A stretch of DNA of 64,000 bases, taken from Escherichia coli (GTDB taxonomy: Bacteria > Pseudomonadota > Gammaproteobacteria > Enterobacterales > Enterobacteriaceae). The notes under the pieces were generated by a model. The model saw only the letters and a program-made list of their open reading frames with translations, did not search any database and had not been told where the DNA came from. The stretch is taken from the NCBI RefSeq assembly GCF_013315695.1, contig NZ_CP054353.1. One strand, 5' to 3'. Each line of letters begins with the position of its first letter. Position 1 is the first letter of the stretch. Of this stretch, positions 45,011-45,479 are shown one piece after another. The translations under genes and the position numbers were made by a program.

Positions 45011-45070
45011 CATGGCGAATAAATAAACGGATCAAGTCGTTCCTGTGACAATGAGGTTATACAAAAAGAC

Positions 45071-45128
45071 GCTTACTCATCAGAAATCTGGTATGCTTTA
45101 ATTAAACCAGTGTCGCTGATGTGTAAGC
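45071..45128 (+). repeat. Conserved nested-hairpin element 3' of paralogue A (copy 1)
   Basis: GCTTACTCATCAG ... CTGATGTGTAAGC outer stem with inner CTGGT ... ACCAG stem; same structure 60 nt after paralogue C. Confidence 0.6.
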
Positions 45129-45479
45129 GTTGACGTTGGGAGACGATTAAATGGTTATACCACTCCTACGCCTTTTCCAGACGGCGTATAAGAGTGCAAC
45201 ATGTTGAGTTTTCCGAGTGAATGGTGCATTTTACTAACCGAGCCATTTGAATCAACCAACGTAATAAAAAAGACTGGAATAATAAGCCTGTATTTATTAT
45301 TCATCGCAATCGCACTCTACGGTTTTATCCTGCAGAAATGAGACTACTTCCAGCGGTTGTGGATTATCCCTGGGCGATAGTCATAGTCTGGTGTCAGGAT
45401 TCACAAATGACCTGTTACCTGACATGGATATAAACACAACATAGAGTGCGGTAGTTAATCTGAATCATCTATTTTTCGG

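Follow-up and report, generated by a model that had tools for sequence, protein, structure and literature searches.

The stretch of DNA analyzed here (64,000 nucleotides; the window) contains the E. coli Z5211-Z5214 islet, which runs from phoU to adeP. The 6.5 kb around the two hairpins that are the subject of this study matched E. coli MSB1_4I at 100%. The gene order is phoU-espY5-espX3-espY4-yieH-adeP; the same position in K-12 holds bglGFBH-yieL-yieK-cbrC-cbrB. The Z5211-Z5214 region of O157:H7 is AT-rich, ORFan, and without mobility genes, and is clonally inherited in approximately one-fifth of strains (PMC2646131). The AT-rich locus was also found to be expressed at low levels in EHEC RNA-seq (PMC4048457). 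No integrase or transposase was found in the islet, from phoU to adeP.

Two paralogues of the espY family of type III effector genes lie on the + strand. The phoU-side member (42626..45010; 794 aa) corresponds to EspY5', occupies the Z5214/ECs4657 position, and has a WEX5F-type N-terminus; RefSeq names it either 'type III effector protein' or 'hypothetical protein'. The yieH-side member (46950..49376), a T3SS effector annotated as espY4 in RefSeq, is an ORF of 808 aa, or 802 aa from the RefSeq start. The two proteins share 33% identity. The EspY family yielded 41 matches among 1.8 billion representative proteins, and every full-length homologue placed on a contig was either at the phoU-yieH locus or accompanied by the first hairpin and the yieH' fragment described below. 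Two genes on the - strand converge on the paralogues. A pentapeptide-repeat gene at the espX3 (EspX3') position (45480..46667) converges on hairpin 1 from the right, and an intact yieH, encoding a 6-phosphogluconate phosphatase (49513..50178), converges on espY4 with hairpin 2 in between.

Several variants of this region were observed. The divergent haplotype block extends from approximately 42070 to 50310. Within it, yieH and the yieH-adeP spacer (49513-50310) are ~80% identical to K-12 (L002), and sequence from adeP onward is 95-100% identical. The yieH allele of the B2-type strain N64 is 93% identical to that of the window, which makes the K-12 allele the outlier. Islet deletion variants (L125-L130; for example, L126 4744-8409) carry a 400-aa espY5 remnant followed 55 nt on by espY4, and have neither hairpin 1 nor espX3. 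Strain RMDEC465 (cited at L003 1156-1919) retains an espY5 fragment only, without hairpin 1, and VTB96933v (L138) has an IS3-family element within espY4. Finally, REP/BIME-like palindromes follow pstA (40474-40550) and phoU (42095-42156) and gave sub-threshold matches to Rfam naRNA4 (28-35 bits). These are ordinary E. coli REP elements with no relation to the espY hairpins.

Hairpin 1 (58 nt, 45071..45128, + strand) and hairpin 2 (59 nt, 49436..49494, + strand) are located in the 3' UTRs of espY5 and espY4, respectively. Their distances from the stop codons at 45010 and 49376 are 61 and 60 nt, and a first-pass annotation of the DNA had been exact in the stem coordinates and in a spacing of ~60 nt. 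Each hairpin sits between converging genes, and hairpin 2 is 18 nt from the stop codon of yieH. In hairpin 1, the outer arms (45071-45083, GCTTACTCATCAG; 45116-45128, CTGATGTGTAAGC) and the inner stem (CTGGT, 45088-45092; ACCAG, 45106-45110) can be read directly from the sequence, and folding added a basal helix extension (GAC, 45068-45070; GTT, 45129-45131). The corresponding stems of hairpin 2 are at 49436-49448/49482-49494 (outer) and 49453-49457/49472-49476 (inner). The 18-mer CTGATGTGTAAGCGTTGA would be expected 0.02 times in the window. The outer stem had been described as 13 bp. This is correct for the length of the arms, but they form 12 pairs around a central U·U mismatch, and the helix is longer than described, being lengthened at its base by GAC/GUU and, in copy 2, also by a mid-helix CAC/GUG. 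The result is a near-continuous helix of 22-25 bp with small internal loops and a loop of 13-14 nt. The base pairs of both hairpins were retained across 14 haplotypes.

Folding supported the proposed structures. On the + strand, the folding energies were -27.9 kcal/mol for hairpin 1 and -32.0 kcal/mol for hairpin 2, with z-scores against shuffled sequences of -6.5 and -6.7 (about -6.6 for the pair). The - strand folded at -24.5 and -31.7 kcal/mol, and z ranged from -4.9 to -7.2 over both strands. Covariance model scores were 96 bits for hairpin 1 and 92.9 bits for hairpin 2. Thus, a stable, G+C-containing stem-loop of the kind found in intrinsic terminators is present on both strands (-24.5 to -32.0 kcal/mol). 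The sequences that follow differ. On the + strand, the 3' tails are GTTGACGTTGGG and GTTGAAGTAAGG, neither of which is a U-tract, and a simple terminator scan called neither hairpin. On the - strand, copy 1 has the tail GTCTTTTTGT, a T-run that constitutes a near-canonical terminator tail and that reads GTCTTTTCGT in most strains; copy 2, beside the live yieH, has the poor tail GTCTATTCCC. The statement of the first-pass annotation that neither stem is followed by a T-run therefore holds for the + strand but not for the - strand of copy 1, and its conclusion that these are not classical intrinsic terminators for the paralogues stands. Separately, an 18-codon ORF (45140-45200, + strand; ATG at 45153, after a GGGAGA/GGAG motif) lies downstream of hairpin 1. 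It has no counterpart after hairpin 2 and was dropped as probably a chance ORF inside the yieH fragment.

The similarity between the two copies extends past the hairpins. The shared block covers ~96 nt (45064-45159 versus 49429-49525; 80% identity) and continues across the 18-nt spacer to take in the stop codon and the final codons of yieH. The conserved block of ~80 bp noted earlier is thus real but is longer than was stated and runs into the 3' end of yieH. Next to hairpin 1, the spacer is joined to a decayed fragment of yieH (yieH'; 45129..45256, - strand; 80% and 74% nucleotide identity to live yieH). This comprises the 18-nt spacer and stop codon (45129-45149, - strand), a match to YieH aa 204-220 (45153-45203, - strand) that is weak alone but collinear, and a match to YieH aa 106-128 (45188-45256, - strand; 65% over 23 aa, E = 2e-6). 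The yieH' pieces have 68-74% identity to live yieH, and the two protein matches overlap, so the fragment has been rearranged or internally deleted. A decayed 5' fragment of cbrC follows (45258..45365, - strand). It encodes CbrC aa 14-49, interrupted by in-frame stop codons, at 58% identity over 36 aa (E = 2e-8), and has 74% nucleotide identity to K-12 cbrC. The two fragments abut head to tail at 45256/45258, both on the - strand like live yieH.

The order yieH interior followed by cbrC 5' end was found in no intact chromosome and is exactly the order that a tandem duplication predicts. This arrangement marks the join as the scar left by an old tandem duplication, the duplicated unit of which reads as [cbrC 5' part - espX3 - espY - hairpin - yieH 3' part]. 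The left-hand copy of cbrC and espX3 must then have been lost after the duplication. Unequal recombination between two diverged haplotypes would be expected to leave the same picture. The scar implies that the two hairpins date back to the divergence of espY5 from espY4, both descending from one ancestral hairpin, and that espX3-espY-hairpin holds the place that cbrB has in K-12-type strains. Indeed, we judge the scar to be more instructive than the hairpins themselves. It is a concrete step in the history of the alternative bgl and Z5211-Z5214 islets, and shows that the Z haplotype arose in a cbrC-carrying genome with espX3-espY-hairpin in the place of cbrB. The first-pass annotation recorded the pair of hairpins; the surrounding segmental duplication with its yieH and cbrC fragments, and the terminator-like appearance of copy 1 on the opposite strand, were missed.

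The distribution of the hairpins was evaluated in complete genomes, metagenomes, and family databases. Of 5426 complete E. coli genomes, 1108 carried the element, none with more than two copies and none away from this locus; approximately 18 of the 1108 genomes had a single hairpin. A metagenome scan for both arms returned 57 stretches, each of which proved to be one of the two copies at this locus, and a covariance model search found no further copy in the window. In a 15-mer contig scan, both arms occurred in none of the matches listed (at least 120, mostly single chance matches), a result that says little about other species. A dispersed repeat family of the REP/BIME type, for which the first-pass annotation had suggested a genome-wide search, was rejected on the low copy number and the confinement to this locus. 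No family in Rfam 15 matched, the sole hit being a chance-level match to mir-590 (23.6 bits versus a threshold of 65; E = 0.92). Literature searches covering Z5211-Z5214, ECs4653/4657, and EspY4/Y5/X3 turned up neither an account of the hairpins nor any 3'-end mapping.

Two classes of mobile element were also considered. The hairpin arms could pass as terminal inverted repeats. A MITE or IS remnant was rejected because the arms are flanked by AGAC on one side and GTTGA on the other, which do not form a target-site duplication, and because there are no other insertion sites; the earlier suggestion that the hairpins are remnants of a small mobile element is accordingly not supported. The attC consensus has RYYYAAC and GTTRRRY core sites at the ends of the palindrome, together with an integron integrase and a cassette array. 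Here, the left end GCTTACT fits at 5/7 positions and GTTGACG/GTTGAAG, which lies outside the right arm, fits at 5-6/7. An attC site was likewise rejected, as these end motifs are a misfit; no integrase lies between phoU and adeP. An insertion was observed in one strain, ABW_A19 (L146 3471-4801), in which IS2 interrupts the very start of the left arm of hairpin 2 and is flanked by a duplicated 5-bp target, CGCTT. Hairpin 2 is intact in this strain, but the insertion has left it 1.3 kb away from espY4.

We compared the stems with the sequences around them, between the copies and among strains. The copies were identical at 40 of 40 stem positions and at 18 of 29 non-stem positions (Fisher p = 2e-5), in agreement with the earlier description of conserved stems and a divergent loop. 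The strain sample comprised 21 E. coli genomes spanning the range of hairpin-region identity, together with assembly and metagenome loci. In the sampled strains, 6 of 76 stem sites varied (three of 38 in each copy), versus 121 of 481 sites in the non-coding flanks (p = 6e-4). The genomes had been chosen to be diverse in the hairpin region, which makes the contrast a conservative one. Mean pairwise identities of the stems were 0.967 and 0.981 in the two copies, as compared to 0.91 and 0.88 for the spacers between stop codon and hairpin. The last 640 nt of espY5 (44370-45010) and espY4 (48736-49376) had mean pairwise identities of 0.79 and 0.83, and ~47% of their sites segregated in 13-15 haplotypes (loci L131-L145). 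Such polymorphism points to evolution that is very rapid or diversifying, or to old alleles recombining with one another. Conversion of one copy by the other would homogenize the loops as well, and so does not explain conservation of the stems only. The stems are thus held by purifying selection while the loop is free to drift, and they are the best-kept part of a polymorphic locus.

The first-pass annotation had described the difference between copies as a covariation-like pattern and proposed a covariance analysis. No true covariation was found across the E. coli strains. There were no compensatory double changes in the sampled haplotypes, and no + strand pair had changed on both sides. The five variable pairs were all altered on one side: four are G-C to G·U polymorphisms and one is a fixed difference between the copies. 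In one lineage, L142, a C>G substitution abolishes a pair whichever strand is folded. Thus, the evidence for structure is constraint together with wobble tolerance, not covariation, and in the absence of compensatory changes the conservation of the stems could reflect recognition of sequence, not pairing.

The substitutions were one-sided with respect to strand. Four G:C stem pairs were polymorphic, and every change at these was C>T on the + strand, with at least five events distributed over both copies and several backgrounds; no G>A stem change occurred in the sampled strains. The C>T changes keep a G·U pair in an espY-sense RNA and give A·C on the opposite strand. Similarly, the U·U mismatch has become G·U on the + strand through a T>G change. 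Paired cells amounted to 97.4% on the + strand versus 93.5% on the - strand, where the non-pairs were the four polymorphic pairs and one mid-helix pair that differs between the copies. The mean ΔG was -27.5 (+) versus -22.0 (-) for copy 1 and -30.4 (+) versus -28.8 (-) for copy 2. In the L134/L138 haplotype, the stem is a continuous 16 bp on the + strand (-33/-30), but the - strand folds at -22.6/-18.5. A mutation bias behind the C>T-only changes was rejected, since outside the hairpins the per-site rates of C>T and G>A were equal (0.106 versus 0.114; 0.20 versus 0.22). With approximately five events, the asymmetry has a one-sided p of about 0.03 and a two-sided p of 0.06. It is therefore probable, not proven, that the hairpin acts as espY-sense RNA, given the few events and the pair-breaking C>G in L142.

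Based on these data, we propose that the hairpins are RNA structures in the espY 3' UTRs that form or protect the 3' end of the mRNA and insulate the converging genes, a reading that we would accept and doubt in about equal measure. Since the copies arose, the espY genes and the spacers behind them have drifted heavily, as have yieH' and the cbrC fragment, and purifying selection has held the stems. Transcription leaving espY would meet a 22-25 bp hairpin without a U-tract. The polymerase might stop there, inefficiently; alternatively, it might stop further on, through Rho or collision, and exonucleases would then trim the transcript back to the hairpin. Since the + strand has no U-tract, termination at the hairpin itself is not predicted. 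Either course would be expected to leave the mRNA with a stable 3' end and to let few antisense transcripts run on into yieH (copy 2) or espX3 (copy 1). A stable 3' UTR hairpin without a U-tract, as is characteristic of protective 3'-end structures, is what was found, and the role in RNA stability or processing that the first-pass annotation had offered for the paralogue transcripts fits the substitution pattern. Known structures of this kind are the hairpins lacking a U-tract that end Rho-dependent transcripts, and stabilizers of the REP type. The sequences establish the anatomy, the duplication scar, the stem constraint, and the strand asymmetry of the changes; production of the RNA and an effect on termination or stability are inferred from them.

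The main rival explanation, which we consider credible though on balance unlikely, places the function on the opposite strand: the hairpins would be terminators of yieH (copy 2) and espX3 (copy 1), or two-way terminators for the converging units. Consistent with this, hairpin 2 is 18 nt past the yieH stop, a spacing that was duplicated along with the hairpin, and the copy 1 tail on the - strand is classical (GTCTTTTTGT; GTCTTTTCGT in most strains). Folding of the - strand is favorable too, at -24.5 and -31.7 kcal/mol. Moreover, a stable hairpin directly follows the yieH stop in the K-12-type as well as in the Z haplotype, which hints at a need on the yieH strand. However, it is the copy beside the live yieH that has the poor tail GTCTATTCCC, and copy 1 is 350 nt past the espX3 stop codon. 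The substitution record also runs against it, as all stem transitions lead to A·C on this strand and its energies fall by up to 11 kcal/mol in some haplotypes. Finally, this hairpin is missing after the closely related yieH allele of N64.

A role in the espY 3' UTR could also be more specific than that proposed above. RNase III substrates follow a rule of size and shape that a near-continuous 22-25 bp duplex with small internal loops matches, and the hairpins could accordingly be RNase III sites, acting in retroregulation like that of lambda sib, or docking hairpins of the ProQ type. The + strand is favored, and the stem sequence is kept more tightly than pairing alone requires. In a stronger form, the hairpins would be dedicated cis-regulatory elements of the espY mRNAs, either RNase III- or ProQ-type sites or sources of 3'-derived sRNAs, whose exact stem sequence is recognized; such recognition would explain 40 identical stem bases despite 33% identity of the gene products. 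We nonetheless regard a specific regulatory site as doubtful, because no Rfam family matched, a single locus makes no shared regulon signal visible, and the simpler 3'-end role explains the same data. The dedicated element recognized by its exact sequence seems to us just as improbable.

A DNA-level element, whether a protein-binding inverted repeat, a recombination site, or a MITE- or attC-like mobile relic, is very unlikely. In its favor, the stems are conserved as sequence without compensatory changes, the two copies are direct repeats around a 4.3-kb segment, and IS2 has inserted at the base of copy 2 in one strain with the target duplication CGCTT. Against it, there are at most two copies per genome in 5426 E. 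coli and no other context in the 57 metagenome stretches or the window, no direct repeats beside the arms (AGAC/GTTGA), no integrase or transposase in the islet (including in PMC2646131), a misfit between the arm ends and attC core sites, an account of the direct-repeat geometry in the yieH'/cbrC' duplication junction, and tolerance of one-sided C>T changes that break the symmetry of the arms.

The hairpin pair is thus real, under selection, and previously undescribed; very probably, it is an ordinary kind of 3'-end element. If the proposed 3'-end role is correct, the locus is a natural experiment in which the effector genes, the spacers, and two gene fragments drifted after a duplication while the 3' UTR hairpin stayed fixed. 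The hairpin would then count as a working component of the espY transcription units, at a locus that is usually treated as H-NS-silenced ORFan DNA, and would provide a handle on how espY effector mRNAs end or are stabilized. The practical weight is modest, as this is one locus in approximately one-fifth of E. coli genomes.

We compared the espY hairpins with known systems. Like REP/BIME elements, which stabilize mRNA 3' ends and are dispersed in E. coli, they are imperfect palindromes in an intergenic 3' region and able to block 3'-5' exonucleases, whereas REP elements occur in hundreds of copies with a consensus and the espY element has two copies of unrelated sequence. The retroregulator sib of lambda is an RNase III site downstream of int. 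It resembles the espY element in being a long imperfect hairpin 3' of a gene on whose mRNA it could act; alternative read-through and terminated transcripts belong to sib, whereas cleavage of the espY hairpin is only hypothetical.

The hairpin between yieH and cbrB in K-12-type strains (L002 3447-3503; L204 3148-3213) is similar in form. It is ~60 nt long, folds at -27.6/-32.4, and starts ~10 nt past the yieH stop, so that both haplotypes have a stable hairpin of ~60 nt 10-18 nt after yieH. In contrast, the sequences are unrelated (~43% identity), and the espY covariance model scored the K-12-type hairpin at 11 bits (E = 3). In strain N64, the K-12-type hairpin and cbrB come after a yieH allele that shares 93% identity with that of the window. 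An orthologous relationship was rejected on this combination of a Z-like yieH and a K-12-type hairpin, and because the hairpin sequences do not align; the arrangement in N64 also implies that the espY hairpin came with the espX3-espY segment and is not part of yieH. As a separate observation, the ribosome-binding site of cbrB (AAGGGAG), immediately ahead of the ATG, falls within the right arm of the K-12-type hairpin, and the hairpin may control the translation of cbrB.

Intrinsic terminators can be bidirectional between converging genes and have loops of 3-8 nt. The espY hairpins share with them a strong hairpin between converging genes and, in copy 1, a preceding A-run that is a T-run on the - strand. 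They differ in that a U-tract is lacking from the espY strand of both copies and from the yieH strand of copy 2, and in their loop of 13-14 nt. Stem-loops without a U-tract, in turn, have been described in E. coli 3'-end mapping studies as marking or protecting the ends of transcripts that are Rho-dependent or read through, exonucleases trimming back to them. In comparison with these, the espY hairpin is unusually long (~60 nt, 22-25 bp), and its stem has long been identical in the two copies. The shared features are a stable 3' UTR stem-loop without a U-tract, a position shortly after the stop codon, and selection that is confined to the stem.
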